Origin: a virus
Lineage: Duplodnaviria; Heunggongvirae; Uroviricota; Caudoviricetes
Virus record (IMG/VR): IMGVR_UViG_2671181136_000012
Strand: one strand, 5' to 3'
DNA length: 11,511 nt
The notes beneath the pieces are model-generated. The model was not told the origin of the DNA. It saw only the letters and a program-made list of their open reading frames with translations, and did no database searches. Every line of letters begins with the position of its first letter. Position 1 is the stretch's first letter. Both the position numbers and the translations under genes were made by a program. Below are positions 2,027 to 11,511 of this stretch, piece by piece.

Positions 2027-2286
2027 TTAGTTTCCTTGTTTATGCCTTGCTGGTGATGTTCTGAAAAGTATAAATGATATTTTTGATTGTAAACCATAGA
2101 GCAGAATTATTTTTCTGATGTTGTTTATTGTTTATTTAAATGCAGGGTGGTTTATATCTCGTCTTGTAGTTTATCCATGCATATCTGCTTGATGATGAGG
2201 TTTTTAATTAAGGTATGGTTTTGTGTTTTTTCTGTATTACATGTCAGGTATTTTAAAGAATCATTTTTCAGATGGTGGAAAGAACC

Positions 2287-4140
2287 ATGGCATTTAAACA
2301 CTATGATGTTGTCAGGGCGGCGTCGCCGTCAGATCTTGCGGAAAAGCTGACACATAAACTGAAAGAGGGCTGGCAGCCGTTTGGTAGTCCGGTGGCCATA
2401 ACCCCTTATACCCTGATGCAGGCGATTGCAGCAGAAGGTGATGTGGTCGTCAGTGGTGCAACTGAGCCGGAGTGGTACTACGTCATCGTACTGGCCGGGC
2501 AATCCAATGCCATGGCTTACGGTGAAGGGCTTCCGCTTCCGGATTCATACGATGCGCCCCATCCGCGCATTAAGCAACTGGCCCGTCGTAACACAGTGAC
2601 TCCCGGTGGTGAAGTATGCGTATTTAACGACATCATTCCTGCTGACCATTGTCTGCATGATGTTCAGGATATGAGTACGATTAACCATCCCCGGGCTGAC
2701 CTGAGCAAAGGGCAGTACGGCTGTGTCGGACAGGGCTTACATATTGCCAAAAAACTGCTTCCGTATATCCCTAATAATGCGGGGATCCTGCTGGTACCAT
2801 GCTGTCGTGGTGGTTCGGCATTCACCCAGGGCACGGAGGGGACATTCAGCGAGTCCACGGGGGCCAGTCAGGATTCGGCTCGCTGGGGAGTGGGTAAGCC
2901 GTTATATCAGGATCTGCTTTTCCGCACGAAGGCAGCATTGCAGAAAAACCCGAAAAACGTTTTGCTGGCGATATGCTGGATGCAGGGGGAATTCGATATG
3001 ACGAATGCCAGTTACGCCCAGCAGCCAGCAGCATTTCTTGCAATGGTACAGCAGTTCCGTGCTGACCTTGCCGGGCTGGCGGCGCAGTGTCACGGTGGAA
3101 GTCCGGCATCAGTCCCCTGGATTTGTGGCGACACGACATACGCGTGGAAACAAGAACACGGTACGCAATATGAAGTGGTATATGGTGCATATAAAGGTAA
3201 AGAATCCCAGCAGATTTATTTTGTTCCCTTTATGACCGATGGTAGCGGAGTTAATACACCGACAAACAACCCGTCAGAAGATCCTGATATTGCCGGGTCT
3301 GGTTATTACGGTTCGGCATCCCGAACGAACAAAAACTGGGTATCATCAAATCGCCCGACGCATTTCAGCTCATGGGCGCGTCGTGGCATTATTCCCGATC
3401 GTATGGCAACTGCTATTCTGAACGTAGCCGGTCGCACCTTAGCCTTCATTAGTGGTAAGGCACCGGAAATCAAACCCTCGCCCGGCGGCGACACGCCATC
3501 GGGGCCGTCTGAAGATGCATCCGTACGCACAATCTCCCTGTTGCCGACAGCCGGAGATGCTGCTGCGCAGGGCTGGAGCATTAAGAATGGCGGAATTCAG
3601 TTGTCAGATGGTGTATTTAAGATCACCAAGCAGAGCAATAAAGCCTGGTCCCTGACGCGCCCGGTGGATGACGCAGTCTCCCTGCTGACACGGGGTGGCA
3701 GACTGAGCTGTAAGTTTCGACTGTCAGGCGCACTGACCAACAATCAGTTCGGTCTGGGAATTTATCTGTATACCGATGTAGCGTTACCTGACGTCGTGGC
3801 GATGACCGGGACTGGTAACCCGTTCCTGATGTCGTTCTTCACCCAGACCACAGACGGCAAACTGAATCTGATGCATCACAGGAAAGCAGGAAACACAAAG
3901 TTGGGCGAGTTCGGGAATTACAGTAACGACTGGCAGACGCTGGAGCTGGTGTTCACCGCCGGCAGTGCCACGGTTACTCCGAAACTGAATGGAGTGGCTG
4001 GCCCGGCATTCCAGGTCATAAAAGACAGTCTGACACTGGGGCTGAATGCGCTGACGCTGACGGATATTACCAAAAATGCAACGTATGGCGTTGAGATAGA
4101 AAGTCTGGTGCTGGAGATAAATGCACCGGCATCATCATAA
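2287..4140 (+). CDS. nanS-p: Prophage sialate O-acetylesterase NanS-p-like (DUF1737 N-terminal region + SASA/SGNH esterase + C-terminal lectin-like domain)
   Basis: The N-terminus MAFKHYDVVRAASPSDL is DUF1737-like and is followed by the GQSNA esterase motif typical of SASA-family 9-O-acetylneuraminate esterases. Gene position (after the tRNA/stx locus, before the holin) is as in Stx and related lambdoid phages. Start taken at ATG 2287 (GGTGGAAAG upstream); the track ORF begins at ATG 2272 without an RBS. Confidence 0.8.
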   Translation: MAFKHYDVVRAASPSDLAEKLTHKLKEGWQPFGSPVAITPYTLMQAIAAEGDVVVSGATEPEWYYVIVLAGQSNAMAYGEGLPLPDSYDAPHPRIKQLARRNTVTPGGEVCVFNDIIPADHCLHDVQDMSTINHPRADLSKGQYGCVGQGLHIAKKLLPYIPNNAGILLVPCCRGGSAFTQGTEGTFSESTGASQDSARWGVGKPLYQDLLFRTKAALQKNPKNVLLAICWMQGEFDMTNASYAQQPAAFLAMVQQFRADLAGLAAQCHGGSPASVPWICGDTTYAWKQEHGTQYEVVYGAYKGKESQQIYFVPFMTDGSGVNTPTNNPSEDPDIAGSGYYGSASRTNKNWVSSNRPTHFSSWARRGIIPDRMATAILNVAGRTLAFISGKAPEIKPSPGGDTPSGPSEDASVRTISLLPTAGDAAAQGWSIKNGGIQLSDGVFKITKQSNKAWSLTRPVDDAVSLLTRGGRLSCKFRLSGALTNNQFGLGIYLYTDVALPDVVAMTGTGNPFLMSFFTQTTDGKLNLMHHRKAGNTKLGEFGNYSNDWQTLELVFTAGSATVTPKLNGVAGPAFQVIKDSLTLGLNALTLTDITKNATYGVEIESLVLEINAPASS

Positions 4141-4225
4141 AAAGTGAGCCAGTCAAATGGAAGGTATCGTTAAACTCACCGGTAGTGTCAGTGGGTCGTC
4201 TGAGATGCCTGCATGAGTTATCAGA

Positions 4226-4256
4226 GCCATCAGTACTTAACTGGTGGCTTTTTTTA
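4226..4256 (+). terminator. Rho-independent terminator-like hairpin upstream of the holin
   Basis: Stem GCCATCAG / CTGGTGGC (one G-U pair), 7-nt loop, then TTTTTTTATT. Confidence 0.45.
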
Positions 4257-4290
4257 TTGTTGTCAGCTTCCGGATAACGGGAGACGGGGT

Positions 4291-4506
4291 ATGTACCAGA
4301 TGGAAAAAATCACAACAGGTGTGTCATACACCACGTCAGCGGTGGGAACGGGCTACTGGTTCCTGCAGTTGCTGGACAGGGTTTCCCCGTCTCAGTGGGC
4401 GGCAATAGGCGTGCTGGGGAGTCTGCTGTTTGGGCTGCTGACATATCTGACTAACCTGTATTTCAAAATCAGAGAGGACCGTCGTAAGGCTGCACGGGGA
4501 GAGTAA
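4291..4506 (+). CDS. S: Phage holin, S21-like pinholin (class II, two TMDs) with dual-start motif
   Basis: 71 aa [71 protein letters not shown], closely resembling the phage 21 / Stx-phage holin. Two in-frame Met codons at 4291 and 4300 give the antiholin/holin dual start. RBS GGGAG at 4278-4282. The track ORF from 4213 overlaps the terminator hairpin and is probably not the real start. Confidence 0.85.
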
Positions 4507-4510
4507 TTCA

Positions 4511-5317
4511 ATGACTCAAAACTATGAACTGATTGTGAAAGGGATCCGCAATTTTGAGAATAAAGTTACGGTAACTTTAGCGTTACGGGACAAAAAACGC
4601 TTTGACGGTGAAATTTTTGACCTGGACATCTCGCTGGACCGTGTTGAAGGTGCCGCGCTGGAGGTTTATGAGGCAGCAGCCAGAAGGAGCATCAGACAGG
4701 TCTTCCTGGATGTTGCTGCCGGGTTATGTGAAGGGGATGAGCTGTCGCCGGAAAAGCGCCCCATAATTTTAGAGGCGCAGGATGTGTTGATAACCTACAA
4801 AGGAAAGCTACCGGGAAGAATTACTGGTTCTCTGAAGATGCCGCCGTCAACACTGCGGTCAGAAAAAGAGGCGTCTTGTCTGCAGTCTGAGTACTCCATT
4901 ACGGTTAAAAGTGCCGGAGAGGAAGGAAATAAACGTTATTTTATTGCGTCTGCACCTGATAAAGATCAGGAATGGGAGTGTAACCGGCCATCCTTTGTTG
5001 TATACGGAGATGGCGGGAAAATAACCATCTCAGAAAATGGGAAATTAACACCGCCATCGCACCAGCATAGTGAGGCGCTCATTGAATTTGCCATTGATTA
5101 CCTGAAGAACAATAAAAAGCAGGGGCTGATGAAGCGCATTGGTCGTTGCATGGGATATCTGCAGGTAGCAGCTGAGATTGAAATGATGGCCAGTGGTGCT
5201 GACAATGATGCAGTTGTGCTGGAGGCTCTTCTGCGTGATTTTGATAATACGCCCTTTAAGAAAGCACCTGTTGACTGGATGCAGCCGGGGATGACTTATC
5301 TGAAAGGGCGTATATAA
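4511..5317 (+). CDS. Hypothetical protein, 268 aa, inserted between holin and endolysin
   Basis: Clean 807-nt ORF with RBS GGGGAGAG (4493-4500) and a start 4 nt after the holin stop, so it is translationally placed in the late operon. Predicted soluble; no motif I recognise. Confidence 0.6.
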   Translation: MTQNYELIVKGIRNFENKVTVTLALRDKKRFDGEIFDLDISLDRVEGAALEVYEAAARRSIRQVFLDVAAGLCEGDELSPEKRPIILEAQDVLITYKGKLPGRITGSLKMPPSTLRSEKEASCLQSEYSITVKSAGEEGNKRYFIASAPDKDQEWECNRPSFVVYGDGGKITISENGKLTPPSHQHSEALIEFAIDYLKNNKKQGLMKRIGRCMGYLQVAAEIEMMASGADNDAVVLEALLRDFDNTPFKKAPVDWMQPGMTYLKGRI

Positions 5318-5769: not shown

Positions 5770-6303
5770 ATGAACACCAAAATCAAATATGGCCTGTCGG
5801 CTGCCGTTCTGGCGTTGATTGCCATCGGTGCGCCTGCGCCTGATATTCTCGACCAGTTTCTGGATGAAAAAGAAGGTAACCACACAACGGCATACCGTGA
5901 TGGTGCGGGTATCTGGACCATCTGCCGCGGTGCCACAATGGTGGATGGTAAACCTGTTATTCCGGGCATGAAACTGTCGAAGGAAAAATGCGACCAGGTT
6001 AATGCCATTGAACGGGATAAGGCGCTGGCATGGGTGGAGCGCAATATTAAAGTTCCACTGACCGAACCACAGAAAGCGGGTATAGCGTCATTCTGTCCCT
6101 ATAACATTGGCCCCGGTAAGTGTTTCCCGTCGACGTTTTATAAGCGGCTGAATGCTGGTGACCGCAGGGGAGCGTGTGAGGCGATTCGCTGGTGGATTAA
6201 GGACGGTGGCAGAGACTGCCGTATTCGTTCAAACAACTGCTACGGTCAGGTATCCCGTCGTGACCAGGAGAGCGCGCTGGCGTGCTGGGGTATCGACAGA
6301 TAA
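5770..6303 (+). CDS. R: SAR endolysin (lysozyme R, glycoside hydrolase family 24, R21-like)
   Basis: N-terminal signal-anchor-release segment MNTKIKYGLSAAVLALIAIGAPA and catalytic E-x8-D-x5-T motif (EGNHTTAYRDGAGIWT). 177 aa, as in Stx-phage and phage 21 R. Confidence 0.85.
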   Translation: MNTKIKYGLSAAVLALIAIGAPAPDILDQFLDEKEGNHTTAYRDGAGIWTICRGATMVDGKPVIPGMKLSKEKCDQVNAIERDKALAWVERNIKVPLTEPQKAGIASFCPYNIGPGKCFPSTFYKRLNAGDRRGACEAIRWWIKDGGRDCRIRSNNCYGQVSRRDQESALACWGIDR

Positions 6304-6601: not shown

Positions 6602-7069
6602 ATGAACCGCGTACTGTGCGTGGTCATCATTGCCCTGCTGGTGGCCTGTGGTGCGCTTAGTCTGGGGCTGAATCATTACCGTGATAACGCCATAACCTAC
6701 AAAGAGCAGCGCGATAAAAAAGTCAGTGAGCTGGAGCAGGCAAATGCAACCATTACTGATATGCAGCAGCGCCAGCGTGATGTTGCTGCACTTGATGCCA
6801 GATACTCGAGGGAATTAGCCGATGCGAGAGCTGAAAATGAAACTCTGCGCGCTGACGTTGCCGCTGGTCGTAAGCGCCTGCGGATCAACGCCACCTGCCC
6901 CGGTACCGTGCGTGAAGCCCCCACCACCTCCGGCGTGGATAATGCAACCGGCCCCCGACTGGCAGACACCGCTGAACGGGATTATTTCACTCTCAGAGAG
7001 CGGTTGATGCTGATGCAGAAGCAGCTGGAAGTGGCGCAGGAATATATCCGCACTCAGTGCCTGAAATAA
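6602..7069 (+). CDS. Rz: Spanin inner-membrane subunit Rz (i-spanin)
   Basis: 155 aa with an N-terminal TM segment and a coiled-coil periplasmic domain, near-identical in pattern to lambda Rz (NHYRDNAITYK...AAGRKRL...RDYFTLRERL). Confidence 0.9.
   Translation: MNRVLCVVIIALLVACGALSLGLNHYRDNAITYKEQRDKKVSELEQANATITDMQQRQRDVAALDARYSRELADARAENETLRADVAAGRKRLRINATCPGTVREAPTTSGVDNATGPRLADTAERDYFTLRERLMLMQKQLEVAQEYIRTQCLK
6822..7007 (+). CDS. Rz1: Spanin outer-membrane lipoprotein Rz1 (o-spanin), embedded in the +1 frame of Rz
   Basis: 61 aa MRELKMKLCALTLPLVVSAC... with a lipobox (VSAC) and the proline-rich CVKPPPPPAWIMQP motif as in lambda Rz1. RBS GAGGGA 8 nt upstream. Confidence 0.85.
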   Translation: MRELKMKLCALTLPLVVSACGSTPPAPVPCVKPPPPPAWIMQPAPDWQTPLNGIISLSESG

Positions 7070-7321
7070 GTTTTGCTGATGCGCGGTATTGTCGCCGTAT
7101 CCCCGCATTAACAGAGACCGCAGCCCGACCGGGAGACTCCTCTGCGCGAGTGTGCGGGGATAATCAAAAACGATACACACCGGGGTTTACCGCGTTAACG
7201 GAGCGCGGCGTTGTCCCCTCATAGTCGCCTGTCCGGTGCGATGGTGGAAGAAACCGGACTACATTGAAAATGATAACCATTATCATTTTGCGGGTCCTTT
7301 CCGGCGATCCGGGCCGTTACG

Positions 7322-7333
7322 GGGCGGCGACCT
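7322..7333. other. cosN, the 12-nt cohesive-end site (GGGCGGCGACCT)
   Basis: Exact lambda cohesive-end sequence, preceded by the lambda right-end sequence ...CGGGTCCTTTCCGG.GATCCG....GTTACG and followed by lambda-like CGCGGGTTTTCGCTATTTATGAAAATTTTCCGG. Confidence 0.8.
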
Positions 7334-7369
7334 CGCGGGTTTTCGCTATTTATGAAAATTTTCCGGGGA

Positions 7370-7490
7370 AAATCATGTCGGTACTTCTCGAACATAACTA
7401 TTTGTTTTTTCTAATATCGAATCCGTAAAAGGTCCGACATGAAAACGCCTAAAAAAGTCATTTTCGGGCACTTTCATGTCGGCCCCTGTA
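7370..7490. other. cosB with three terminase small-subunit binding repeats (R3, R2 inverted, R1)
   Basis: Three copies of TTTCATGTCGG-like elements: 7374-7381 CATGTCGG (direct), 7434-7441 CCGACATG (inverted), 7475-7482 CATGTCGG (direct). An AT-rich spacer between R3 and R2 is a likely IHF site. The sequence diverges from lambda cosB downstream of about 7366. Confidence 0.6.
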
Positions 7491-7509
7491 TTTATTGTGA
7501 GACTGTTTC

Positions 7510-8055
7510 ATGAAGGTTAATAAAAAGAAACTTGCCGAAATTTTCAACGTGGATCCGCGAACGATTGAACGCTGGCAGTCTCAGGGACTCCCTTGTGTCT
7601 CCGGAGGTGGTAAGGGCGTTGAATCTGTATTTGATACCGCCATGGCAATTCAGTGGTATGCGCAGAGGGAAGCTGATATCGAAAATGAAAAACTCCGTAA
7701 AGAGGTTGAGGATTACAGGGCTGCCAGTGAGGCAGATCTCCAGCCTGGGACTATTGAGTACGAACGCCATCGACTTACGCGTGCGCAGGCCGACGCACAG
7801 GAGCTGAAGAATGCCAGAGACTCCGCAGAGGTGGTGGAAACCGCATTCTGTACTTTCGTGCTGTCACGGATCGCAGGTGAAATTGCCAGTATTCTTGACG
7901 GGATCCCTCTCTCGGTACAGCGGCGTTTTCCGGAACTGGAAAACCGACATGTTGATTTCCTGAAACGGGATATCATCAAAGCCATGAACAAAGCAGCCGC
8001 GCTGGATGAACTGATACCGGGGTTGCTGAGTGAATATATCGAACAGTCAGATTGA
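7510..8055 (+). CDS. Nu1: Terminase small subunit Nu1 (mosaic: divergent N-terminal DNA-binding domain, lambda-like C-terminal part)
   Basis: 181 aa. Residues after about 55 (IENEKLR...[55 protein letters not shown]...) are essentially lambda Nu1. The N-terminal wHTH region ([29 protein letters not shown]...) differs from lambda and, as I recall it, resembles phage 21 gp1. Confidence 0.9.
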
Positions 8056-8722
8056 TATTCTGCGGCGTGATGTACGCGCCGGGCTGCGAGCCCTGTTCAG
8101 GCCGGAGCCACAGACTGCCGTTGAATGGGCGGATGCCAGTTACTATCTCCCGAAAGAATCCGCATACCAGGAAGGGCGCTGGGAAACACTGCCCTTTCAG
8201 CGGGCCATCATGAATGCGATGGGCAGCGACTACATCCGTGAGGTGAATGTGGTGAAGTCTGCCCGTGTCGGTTATTCCAAAATGCTGCTGGGTGTTTATG
8301 CCTACTTCATAGAGCATAAGCAGCGCAACACCCTTATCTGGTTGCCGACGGATGGTGATGCCGAGAACTTTATGAAAACCCACGTTGAGCCGACTATTCG
8401 TGATATTCCGTCGCTGCTGGCGCTGGCCCCGTGGTATGGCAAAAAGCACCGGGATAACACGCTCACCATGAAGCGTTTCACCAATGGGCGTGGCTTCTGG
8501 TGCCTGGGCGGTAAAGCGGCAAAAAACTACCGTGAAAAGTCAGTGGATGTGGCGGGTTATGATGAACTTGCTGCCTTTGATGAGGATATTGAACAGGAAG
8601 GCTCTCCAACGTTCCTGGGCGATAAGCGTATTGAAGGCTCGGTCTGGCCAAAGTCCATCCGTGGCTCCACGCCCAAAGTGAGAGGCACCTGTCAGATTGA
8701 GCGTGCAGCCAGTGAATCGTAA
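8030..8722 (+). pseudogene. A: Terminase large subunit A, 5' fragment (about 229 codons), truncated by IS insertion
   Basis: Translation matches the lambda gpA N-terminus (MNISNSQ...[61 protein letters not shown]...ERAASES), then stops at TAA 8720-8722, which is created by the IS terminus GTAAGCG beginning at 8719. Confidence 0.85.
8246..8718 (+). repeat. Direct repeat copy 1 (473 bp, terminase A internal segment)
   Basis: Bases 8246-8718 are identical, base for base, to 10265-10737 (offset 2019) in every block I compared. Confidence 0.9.
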
Positions 8723-10264
8723 GCGACTCGTCAGAACCGTATTGATATTTACTGAGAGCTCAGATCAACTTTCCAGGGCAACAGATCGCGTACCCGGTTT
8801 GCCGGCCAGTCCTGGATATGTTCAATGACGTAACGCAGCCACTTTTCTGGCTCCACATTGTTCAGACGGCATGTGCCGATCAGCGAGTACAACACCGCCG
8901 CATGTTCACCACCGCTGTCGGAACCCGCGAACATCCAGTTTTTCCGGCCTACGGCCACTCCCCGTAAGGCGTTCTCTGCGATGTTGTTGTCGATTTCCAC
9001 CCAGCCATTACTGCAGTACACGTTCAGTGCATCCCACTGTTTCAGCAGGTATGCGAACGCTTTTGCCGTATCTGAGTGACGCGACAGTGTTTTCATCTGT
9101 TGCTGTATCCAGTCATACAGTGACTGCATCAGTGGCGCGGCTCTGGCTTTTCTTGCCGCCAGACGCTGTTCTGCTGAACAGCCCCGGACCTCTGCCTCGA
9201 TGGCATACAGTTCACCGATACGCTGCAGGGCTTCCGTGGTGATGTAGGTGGGCGCTCTTGCATGCACATCGTGGATTTTTCTCCGGGCATGAGCCATACA
9301 CGCGGCTTCCGTTATTCTGCCGGATTCGTATAACGCCCGGTAACCACCGTAAGCATCGGCCTGAAGCACACCGCTGTAACCGGCCAGGTGATTTTGTGGA
9401 TGGATACCTTTCCGGTCCGGACTGTACGCGAACCAGACCGCCGGGGGCATCTGTGAACCGGCGTTACGGTCATCACGGACGTAGACCCACAGCCGGGCTG
9501 TCCGGGTTTTACCGCTGCCCGGCTCCTGGACCGGGACGGGGATATCATCAGCATGGACTTTACCGGGCATCAGCACATACTGGCGCAGGACGTCATACAG
9601 CGGCTCCAGCAGTTCAGCAACAGCACCTGTCCAGCGCCCCAGTGTGGCACGGCTCAGCTCCACTCCCTGACGACGGTATATTTCTGACTGGCGGTATAAC
9701 GGCAGATGGTCTGCATATTTCCCGGTGACAACATGGGCCAGAAGCCCCGCTCCGGCATAACTGCGTGCAATGGGTTTTGAAGGTACTGGTGCCTGCACGA
9801 TATGGTCGCACCGGCAACAGGCCTGTTTCGGACGTTGTGTTTCGATAACCTTAAAGGCGCTGCTGATAAGCTCCAGTTGCTCTGACACATCACATCCCAG
9901 AGAACTGAGTTCACCACCACAGGCAGGACAGCATTCCTCTTCCGGCCGGATAACCCGGGTTTCACGGGGAAGTGAGGCCGGTAACGGTTTACGGGCTGAA
10001 GACTGGCGCAGGGCGGATGGCAGTACCGGGTCATATTGCTCACCCAGCGTTTCCGCCATTTCTTCCTGAAGTGCGCTGATTCGCTCCTGTGCTTCCTGTA
10101 TCTGCCGTTCGGTTTTTGCACGAAGTTTTTCTGAGCTTTTACCGAACTGCATGCGCTGCAGTTTTGCAACCAGCGCCTTCAGCCGGTTGATTTCGGAAGC
10201 ATAAGCCGCCACCCGCTGTGAGAGCAGGCAGTTGTATTCAGCCATCTGGCGGATGGTGTCCTGT
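8719..10264 (-). mobile_element. Truncated IS66-family insertion sequence (one terminus plus the tnpC-type transposase gene only; orfA/orfB and the other inverted repeat are absent)
   Basis: The terminus at 8719 begins GTAAGCG, the characteristic IS66-family inverted-repeat start. The segment contains only the 498-aa transposase ORF with 30 bp and 19 bp flanks. At 10264/10265 the element abuts internal terminase sequence with no inverted repeat. Confidence 0.75.
8749..10245 (-). CDS. tnpC: IS66-family transposase (TnpC/orf3-type)
   Basis: 498 aa with an N-terminal coiled-coil/leucine-zipper region, Cys motifs CCPACGGEL ... CCRCDHIV (zinc finger typical of IS66 TnpC), and the conserved C-terminal region ...[47 protein letters not shown].... 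Confidence 0.85.
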
Positions 10265-10737
10265 AATGTGGTGAAGTCTGCCCGTGTCGGTTATTCCAAA
10301 ATGCTGCTGGGTGTTTATGCCTACTTCATAGAGCATAAGCAGCGCAACACCCTTATCTGGTTGCCGACGGATGGTGATGCCGAGAACTTTATGAAAACCC
10401 ACGTTGAGCCGACTATTCGTGATATTCCGTCGCTGCTGGCGCTGGCCCCGTGGTATGGCAAAAAGCACCGGGATAACACGCTCACCATGAAGCGTTTCAC
10501 CAATGGGCGTGGCTTCTGGTGCCTGGGCGGTAAAGCGGCAAAAAACTACCGTGAAAAGTCAGTGGATGTGGCGGGTTATGATGAACTTGCTGCCTTTGAT
10601 GAGGATATTGAACAGGAAGGCTCTCCAACGTTCCTGGGCGATAAGCGTATTGAAGGCTCGGTCTGGCCAAAGTCCATCCGTGGCTCCACGCCCAAAGTGA
10701 GAGGCACCTGTCAGATTGAGCGTGCAGCCAGTGAATC
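10265..10737 (+). repeat. Direct repeat copy 2 (473 bp, terminase A internal segment)
   Basis: Identical to 8246-8718. Beyond 10737 the sequence continues as uninterrupted terminase A (…ERAASESPHFMRFHVACPHCGEEQY…), whereas copy 1 is followed by the IS terminus. Confidence 0.9.
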
Positions 10738-11511
10738 CCCGCATTTTATGCGTTTTCATGTTGCCTGCCCGCACTGCGGGGAGGAGCAGTACCTTAAATT
10801 TGGCGATAAAGAGACGCCGTTTGGCCTCAAATGGACGCCGGATGATCCCTCCAGCGTGTTTTATCTCTGCGAACATAATGCCTGCGTCATCCGCCAGCAG
10901 GAGCTGGACTTCACTGATGCCCGTTATATCTGCGAAAAGACCGGGATCTGGACCCGTGATGGCATTCTCTGGTTTTCGTCATCCGGTGAAGAGATTGAAC
11001 CGCCTGACAGCGTGACCTTTCACATCTGGACGGCGTACAGCCCGTTCACCACCTGGGTGCAGATTGTCAAAGACTGGATGAAGACGAAAGGGGATACGGG
11101 AAAACGTAAAACCTTCGTGAACACCACGCTCGGTGAGACGTGGGAGGCGAAAATTGGCGAACGTCCGGATGCTGAAGTGATGGCAGAGCGGAAAGAGCAT
11201 TATTCAGCGCCCGTTCCTGACCGTGTGGCTTACCTGACTGCCGGTATCGACTCCCAGCTGGACCGCTACGAAATGCGCGTATGGGGATGGGGGCCGGGTG
11301 AGGAAAGCTGGCTGATTGACCGGCAGATTATTATGGGTCGCCACGACGATGAACAGACGCTGCTGCGTGTGGATGAGGCCATCAATAAAACCTATACCCG
11401 CCGGAATGGTGCAGAAATGTCGGTATCCCGTATCTGCTGGGATACTGGCGGGATTGACCCGACCATTGTGTATGAACGCTCGAAAAAACATGGGCTGTTC
11501 CGGGTGATCCC
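10265..11511 (+). pseudogene. A: Terminase large subunit A, 5'-truncated remainder (from about codon 73, containing Walker-A-like KSARVGYSK), running off the window end
   Basis: Frame 2 is open from 10205 to the window end. The translation from 10265 matches lambda gpA ([25 protein letters not shown] ... WDTGGIDPTIVYERSKKHGLFRVI). An in-frame ATG at 10253 sits in IS-derived sequence. The track does not list this ORF because it has no stop inside the window. Confidence 0.8.

Follow-up and report, generated by a model that had tools for sequence, protein, structure and literature searches.

For packaging sites (cos) and small terminase subunits (TerS), the systems of reference here are phage lambda (J02459; DNA-binding domain structure 1J9I) and phage 21 (M81255; DNA-binding domain chain 7LWR). 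In phage 21 the subsites follow one another in the order cosQ/R4, cosN, I2, R3, I1, inverted R2 and R1, and the tripartite R3-I1-R2-R1 layout of cosB is set out in PMC9026076. In vivo, phage 21 discriminates more than 1000-fold against cosB-lambda DNA. Discrimination between lambda and 21 depends critically on base pairs 56 and 59 of R3, and the G:C pair that phage 21 has at bp 56 clashes with Glu24 of lambda TerS (PMC4669245). Specificity for the large subunit, gpA, is set by the C-terminus of TerS (PMC4669245). Hybrids are also known: lambda-21 hy51, a product of laboratory crosses in the Feiss laboratory, carries cosB-21 and a TerS gene made of the 5′ half of phage 21 gene 1 and the 3′ half of Nu1, and it is viable and 21-specific (PMC4669245). 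In phage N15 the cohesive ends are lambda-like and R3 is as far from cosN as in these phages (PMC4669245, PMC9026076); N15 has a single critical R site and another recognition helix.

Here we analyze the cos region of a stretch of viral DNA of 11,511 nt, which we refer to as the window. An earlier note on this DNA had proposed that a lambda-type cos site is combined here with a non-lambda cosB that co-varies with a mosaic Nu1, in the manner of a lambda/21-style swap of packaging specificity. Our comparisons support this proposal and sharpen it: the region very probably comprises the cos site and the matching TerS gene of a lambda-like E. coli prophage, having the packaging specificity of phage 21 and lambda-type packaging and head genes.

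Results

The cohesive end and its surroundings are of the common lambda-like type

Positions 7070-8055 were compared with phage records by megablast, which matched M81255, the head-operon record of phage 21. This record annotates R4, the cos cleavage region, I2, R3, I1, R2, R1 and I0, and we placed these features on the window by pairwise alignment. The 12-nt 5′ cohesive-end sequence GGGCGGCGACCT has the same letters in lambda, in phage 21 and at 7322-7333 of the window, and with two base pairs on each side it constitutes cosN (7320-7335, +). Homology places the top-strand nick at 7321/7322 and the bottom-strand nick after 7333; the right end stops with ...GTTACG at 7321, and 7322 is bp 1 of the left end. 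Upstream of the nick, the R4/cosQ segment CGGGTCCTTTCC (7291-7302, +; left-end bp -30 to -19) is identical at 12 of 12 positions to R4 of M81255 and has the same offset. R4 contains, some 30 bp ahead of the nick, the cosQ core GGGTCCT (7292-7298, +), the packaging-termination signal, which is 7 bp long as defined in work from the Feiss laboratory; 77 of the 80 related loci introduced below have GGGTCCT. Downstream of the nick, a segment at 7351-7365 (+; left-end bp 30-44) matches the I2 IHF site of M81255 at 13 of 15 positions. It lies inside 7322-7366, a stretch that is lambda's for exactly the first 45 left-end bp before divergence starts at 7367, just as the earlier note had described for cosN and the beginning of the left end. 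Within these 45 bp, the window has the lambda state at all four sites at which phage 21 differs.

The "lambda-like" cosQ-cosN-I2 part is nevertheless not diagnostic, because this segment is common to nearly all lambda-like phages, most natural 21-type loci included. Most natural 21-type loci have lambda's cosQ-cosN-I2, with phage 21 itself a slight outlier, and the apparent "junction" on the left, at bp 45/46, therefore probably does not mark a true crossover. Between cosQ and cosN, the spacer (7311-7315; left-end -11 to -7) reads GGGCC in the window and GACAG in lambda, a difference at four of five bases, and occurs as GACCG, GGCAG, AGGCC and AGAAC variants in related loci; it appears to be free to vary in sequence at a fixed length. 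Differences in the cosN region of loci L008-L087 accompany either cosB type, which fits the published tolerance of changes at bp 7-12.

The right end had likewise been described as lambda-like, and this holds for its cos-proximal part. Lambda right-end BLAST matches cover 7270-7311 (90% identity), and by alignment the likeness continues to the nick at 7321. Farther upstream it is limited to a patch at 7097-7195 that resembles lambda 46885-46981 (80%). The Rz stop (7069) and the nick are 252 bp apart, compared with 2075 bp in lambda (Rz end at 46427, genome end at 48502). The absence of bor was thus correctly noted, although the missing lambda right-end sequence amounts to about 1.8 kb with bor included, rather than to bor plus 1.2 kb. 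Between Rz and cos there is also a perfect 10-bp inverted repeat (TATCCCCGCA / TGCGGGGATA, 7098-7162, with 45 nt between the arms), which overlaps the patch resembling lambda 46885-46981 and matched no Rfam family and no terminator pattern.

The cosB boxes correspond to those of phage 21

The three repeats that had been noticed from about 7367 onward, in direct, inverted and direct orientation, were recovered as TTTCATGTCGG-type 11-mers at 7371-7381 (+, AATCATGTCGG, two mismatches), 7434-7444 (-, exact) and 7472-7482 (+, exact). Each is part of a longer box with a counterpart in M81255. The R3 box AATCATGTCGGTACTT (7371-7386, +; bp 50-65) agrees at 15 of 16 positions with R3 of phage 21, which also occupies bp 50-65. 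The R2 box is inverted, its plus strand reading AAGGTCCGACATGAAA (7429-7444, -; bp 108-123), and all 16 positions are those of phage 21 (bp 107-122). The R1 box TTTCATGTCGGCCCCT (7472-7487, +; bp 151-166) agrees at 14 of 16 positions (bp 150-165 in phage 21). Between R3 and R2 lies the IHF bending site I1 (7393-7407, -; bp 72-86), with 13 of 15 positions shared with I1 of M81255; the top match to the IHF consensus in cosB is found here, at 7395-7407 (-), with one mismatch to WATCAANNNNTTR. The order is therefore R3-I1-R2-R1, with R2 inverted and R3 at bp 50-65.

In terms of left-end base pairs, the box cores start at 53, 113 (inverted) and 154 in the window, at 53, 114 and 154 in lambda (DE3 copy) and at 53, 112 and 153 in phage 21. 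The repeats thus stand within 1 bp of the positions of R3, R2 and R1 in both phages, as an alignment was expected to show if the earlier note was right. Their geometry is shared with lambda; their sequence is not, as lambda has R boxes of the CGTTTCC type and the window has boxes of the CATGTCGG type. Because they agree in position to within 1 bp and match the annotated boxes of M81255, we identify them as the R3, R2 and R1 of phage 21, and the "non-lambda" cosB of the window is, on alignment, phage 21's cosB. At the two base pairs that matter for discrimination, 56 and 59, R3 has G and G in the window and in phage 21, and T and C in lambda, which gives the window the 21-type G:C pair at bp 56 and the 21-type bp 59. 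At bp 54 the window has A and phage 21 has G.

The small terminase is a chimera of phage 21 gp1 and lambda Nu1

The Nu1 gene, equivalent to gene 1 of phage 21, occupies 7510-8055 (+) and starts at left-end bp 189, as it does in phage 21. The 181-aa product matches Pfam Phage_Nu1 (PF07471) with 302.6 bits (cut-off 30) over profile positions 1-164 of 164, and is therefore full-length. Its two parts have different affinities. Residues 1-68 are identical to phage 21 gp1 at 60 of 68 positions and to lambda Nu1 at 41 of 68, while residues 69-180 are identical to lambda at 109 of 112 positions and to phage 21 at 57 of 112. For residues 141-180, the last compared, the counts are 40 of 40 for lambda and 12 of 40 for phage 21. 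The claim of a non-lambda N-terminus joined to a lambda-like C-terminus is thereby borne out.

The N-terminal part comprises a 21-type winged-helix DNA-binding domain (encoded at 7510-7713, +). Its recognition helix (residues 17-24), RTIERWQS, is that of phage 21 gp1 and of the 7LWR chain, whereas lambda has RTIQNWQE. The nearest solved structure is 7LWR, a 54-residue chain the same as residues 1-54 of phage 21 gp1, of which 49 are shared with the window. In the wing (residues 31-39) the window reads SGGGKGVES, phage 21 SKGSKGIES and lambda RGGGKGNEV, so that three residues differ from phage 21 and Lys35 is kept.

We then used informative sites, defined as DNA positions at which lambda and phage 21 differ, to follow the two ancestries along the DNA. 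Between 7268 and 7366, three such sites have the state of phage 21 and 10 that of lambda; between 7367 and 7700 the numbers are 114 and 15; and between 7731 and 8300 they are 11 and 211. With 114 sites against 15, the N-terminal coding region is not simply a lambda allele. The crossover within the TerS gene falls at about 7701-7730, corresponding to Nu1 codons 64-74, and the core and gpA-binding C-terminus beyond it are lambda-type. This is where the window departs from phage 21, as both TerS residues 69-181 and gene A are lambda-type. The TerS C-terminus is thus of the same type as the adjacent gene A. It was reportedly Frackman et al., in 1985, who found that the C-terminus determines gpA specificity.

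Box type and recognition helix co-vary among natural loci

For a broader view we assembled 80 IMG/VR loci encoding Nu1 relatives and scored the 200 bp upstream of each for boxes. The helix RTIERWQS occurs in 25 loci, each of which has three C[AG]TGTCGG boxes and lacks lambda-type boxes; RTIQNWQE occurs in the other 55, where two or three lambda-type boxes are present in every case and 21-type boxes are absent. The co-variation of cosB and Nu1 proposed in the earlier note is thus seen in 80 of 80 loci, these being related sequences and not independent events. All full-length copies among the 80 loci have lambda-type C-termini.

The allele is common. The exact 181-aa protein occurs on at least 1000 public contigs, where it is named terminase small subunit or Nu1. 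Of 5426 complete E. coli genomes, 1179 cover at least 80% of 7300-7800, and in 616 records the best match to this segment has at least 95% identity. One IMG/VR contig (locus L012) is 100% identical to the window across 7070-8055. The isolated Escherichia phage IdasGreatGrand (PP925829) has a TerS that is 100% identical and a near-identical cosQ-cosB-Nu1 region, the overall identity to 7079-8055 of the window being 92.7%. It differs in having other sequence upstream of cosQ, an anti-repressor gene between Rz and cos, and an intact gene A. Given that hy51 has this architecture and that an isolated phage, as well as at least 1000 contigs, encodes the exact protein, we regard the finding as already known; the locus is an ordinary, widespread and already annotated E. 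coli prophage allele of a textbook system.

A truncated insertion element interrupts gene A

Downstream of Nu1, gene A, encoding the terminase large subunit, is present in two pieces. The 5′ fragment (8030-8722, +; identified by Pfam GpA_ATPase and by translation) is lambda-type, starts with GTG at 8030, covers residues 1-229 with 88-100% identity to lambda, and ends at a stop codon just inside the end of an insertion element. This element (8719-10264, -; Pfam DDE_Tnp_IS66 and related domains) is a truncated, ISCro1-like member of the IS66 family. It has a terminal GTAAGCG at 8719 and a 498-aa transposase ORF (8749-10245), lacks tnpA and tnpB, and shares 99.7% identity with the ISCro1 copies of E. 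coli genomes. On its far side, a second copy of gene A (10265-11511, +) resumes at codon 73 and remains open to the window end. Its first part, 10265-10737, is an exact 473-bp direct repeat of 8246-8718, and recombination between these repeats would restore an intact gene A.

With gene A split by the truncated IS66 element, the prophage is probably unable to make its own terminase, its cos/Nu1 module being, to judge from the reading frame and subsites, intact. The module probably needs either gpA from another lambda-type prophage or repeat-mediated restoration of gene A, and this local prophage may never package. Searches for the IS/gene A junctions found none in complete E. coli genomes or in the 80 IMG/VR loci, and the nearest genomes have a full-length ISCro1 elsewhere in gene A. 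The 473-bp duplication could be a rare rearrangement or an assembly artefact.

Several other genes were recognized in the window. At Rfam gathering thresholds no known RNA family was recognized at cos or in its vicinity; all hits were far upstream, and consisted of two tRNA genes (527-599 and 703-776) and an STnc100-family sRNA (1476-1665, 132 bits), an arrangement typical of the late-gene region of Stx-type lambdoid prophages. They lie upstream of a large gene for a 622-aa SASA-family esterase with DUF1737 and DUF6645 domains (2272-4140), which we presume to be nanS-p-like. The esterase gene is followed by genes for a holin (4213-4506), which like cosB is of the phage 21 type, for a DUF1327 protein (4511-5317) and for a lysozyme (5770-6303).

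A predicted Fur box lies next to cosQ

The AT palindrome that had been reported close to cosQ is indeed present, with arms at 7267-7276 and 7280-7289 instead of the reported span of 7269-7291. Positions 7266-7284 (GAAAATGATAACCATTATC), just upstream of cosQ, match the 19-bp Fur consensus GATAATGATAATCATTATC at 17 of 19 positions, with 0.00 matches expected by chance. The palindrome aligns with palindromes in the lambda right end and upstream of nohA in the Qin prophage of K-12. For nohA, a Fur gel shift at a site at -233 has been published, along with a strong predicted site at nohB (Chen et al., 2007; PMC2189734); the centre of the box in the window is about 235 bp upstream of the Nu1 ATG. 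We consider the palindrome a predicted Fur box homologous to the Fur-bound nohA site. Among 69 scorable related cos loci, most have a box with at most four mismatches to the Fur consensus at the same offset, and such boxes occur with either cosB type and with varied flanks.

The palindrome is not essential for packaging, given that IdasGreatGrand does without it. A promoter and terminator scan of 6900-7700 found nothing, and for want of a promoter there we do not propose a Fur-controlled sigma-70 promoter. On a role of Fur at lambda-like cos sites, our literature search found just the reports of binding sites at nohA and nohB. With Fur bound at the cos-side box, expression of the terminase genes or the processing of cos could depend on iron status; another possibility is that cos sites of prophages serve to titrate Fur. 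That the Fur box near cosQ is a functional part of the cos neighbourhood (or, as a lesser variant, that the wing and R3 bp 54 mark a sub-specificity within the 21 type) seems to us unlikely.

Discussion

In an attempt to place the window among described systems, we compared its cos region and terminase genes with those of lambda, phage 21, N15 and hy51. With lambda it shares the cohesive end, the beginning of the left end, the geometry of the subsites, most of TerS and the type of gene A; with phage 21 it shares the R boxes and the recognition helix. N15 has a single critical R site whereas the window has a full tripartite cosB with an IHF site. The architecture is that of hy51, likened here by its published description, with which the window has in common a cosQ and cosN of the common type, cosB-21, a 21/Nu1 hybrid TerS and a lambda gpA. 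The two differ in origin, hy51 having been made in the laboratory and the window carrying a natural allele, and the locus is a natural counterpart of that hybrid.

By homology to the lambda/21 model of PMC9026076 and PMC4669245, we can outline how the module would work. IHF would bend the DNA at I1, and the bend would let the 21-type winged-helix domains of a TerS dimer bind R3 and the inverted R2, R1 being a third site. The critical TerS binding site, R3, would have a constant spacing (bp 50-65) from the nick. TerS would use its lambda-type C-terminus to keep lambda-type gpA over cosN, where gpA would introduce the staggered nicks that produce 12-nt ends, and cosQ, upstream, would act in termination. 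With R boxes of the 21 type and a recognition helix of the same type, the module should package cosB-21 DNA, ignore cosB-lambda and work with lambda-type gpA and proheads.

Other interpretations of the same data have to be considered. One is that the boxes arose by chance as a repeat in an AT-rich leader and play no part in packaging. The 11-mer, when two or fewer mismatches are allowed, is indeed not significantly enriched across the window (7 occurrences against 3.4 expected, a number reached in 15 of 200 shuffles). However, the exact 8-mer core CATGTCGG occurs four times against 0.46 expected, which was reached in one of 200 shuffles, and three of the four copies fall within 109 bp. These three coincide with the annotated R boxes of phage 21, and box type tracks the helix type of TerS in every one of the 80 loci, so that this explanation can be considered effectively refuted. 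The fourth copy (7944-7951, -), which sits in a lambda-identical stretch of Nu1 (7926-8045), was treated as a chance occurrence. Alternatively, the module may have acquired a specificity distinct from both lambda and phage 21, through the altered wing and the A at bp 54 of R3. The three wing changes shift the sequence toward lambda's RGGGKGNEV, R3 departs from its phage 21 counterpart at bp 54, and the 21-type block is just about 85-95% identical to phage 21 DNA overall. Yet the recognition helix is phage 21's, bp 56 and 59 are 21-type, and R2 is phage 21's at 16 of 16 positions. Moreover, with A at bp 54, R3 fits the R1/R2 consensus that phage 21 itself uses (TTTCATGTCGG), and the retained Lys35 is a proposed minor-groove contact (PMC9026076). 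We consider a distinct specificity improbable.

It may also be asked whether cos and Nu1 are a decaying relic of a dead prophage, with no packaging function in any context. Gene A is interrupted by the truncated IS66 element, none of the complete E. coli genomes has 80% or more of the window in one place, and the IS junctions are colinear in none of those inspected. This explanation is even less credible than a distinct specificity, as the Nu1 reading frame is full-length and encodes the TerS of an isolated phage, present on at least 1000 contigs, all cos subsites are intact and canonically spaced, and the contig of L012 is 100% identical over 7070-8055. In addition, complementation by the lambda-type gpA of another prophage is possible, and the exact 473-bp repeats allow gene A to be restored precisely. 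We also considered a redirected cos of the PICI type (the Rpp system; PMC9026076) and rejected it, as the locus has a full TerS and ordinary R boxes. A functional, 21-specific cos module with lambda-type partners thus remains the explanation that we favor.

The allele is an example of modules being exchanged where the DNA-binding domain of TerS meets its core, and it introduces no new principle; it does show that the design of the laboratory lambda-21 hybrids is also a common natural allele. Its value is largely one of annotation. Taken together, the R boxes and the N-terminal part of TerS predict whether a given resident prophage or helper phage can package the DNA of another, and this bears on the mobilisation of defective prophages in pathogenic E. 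coli.
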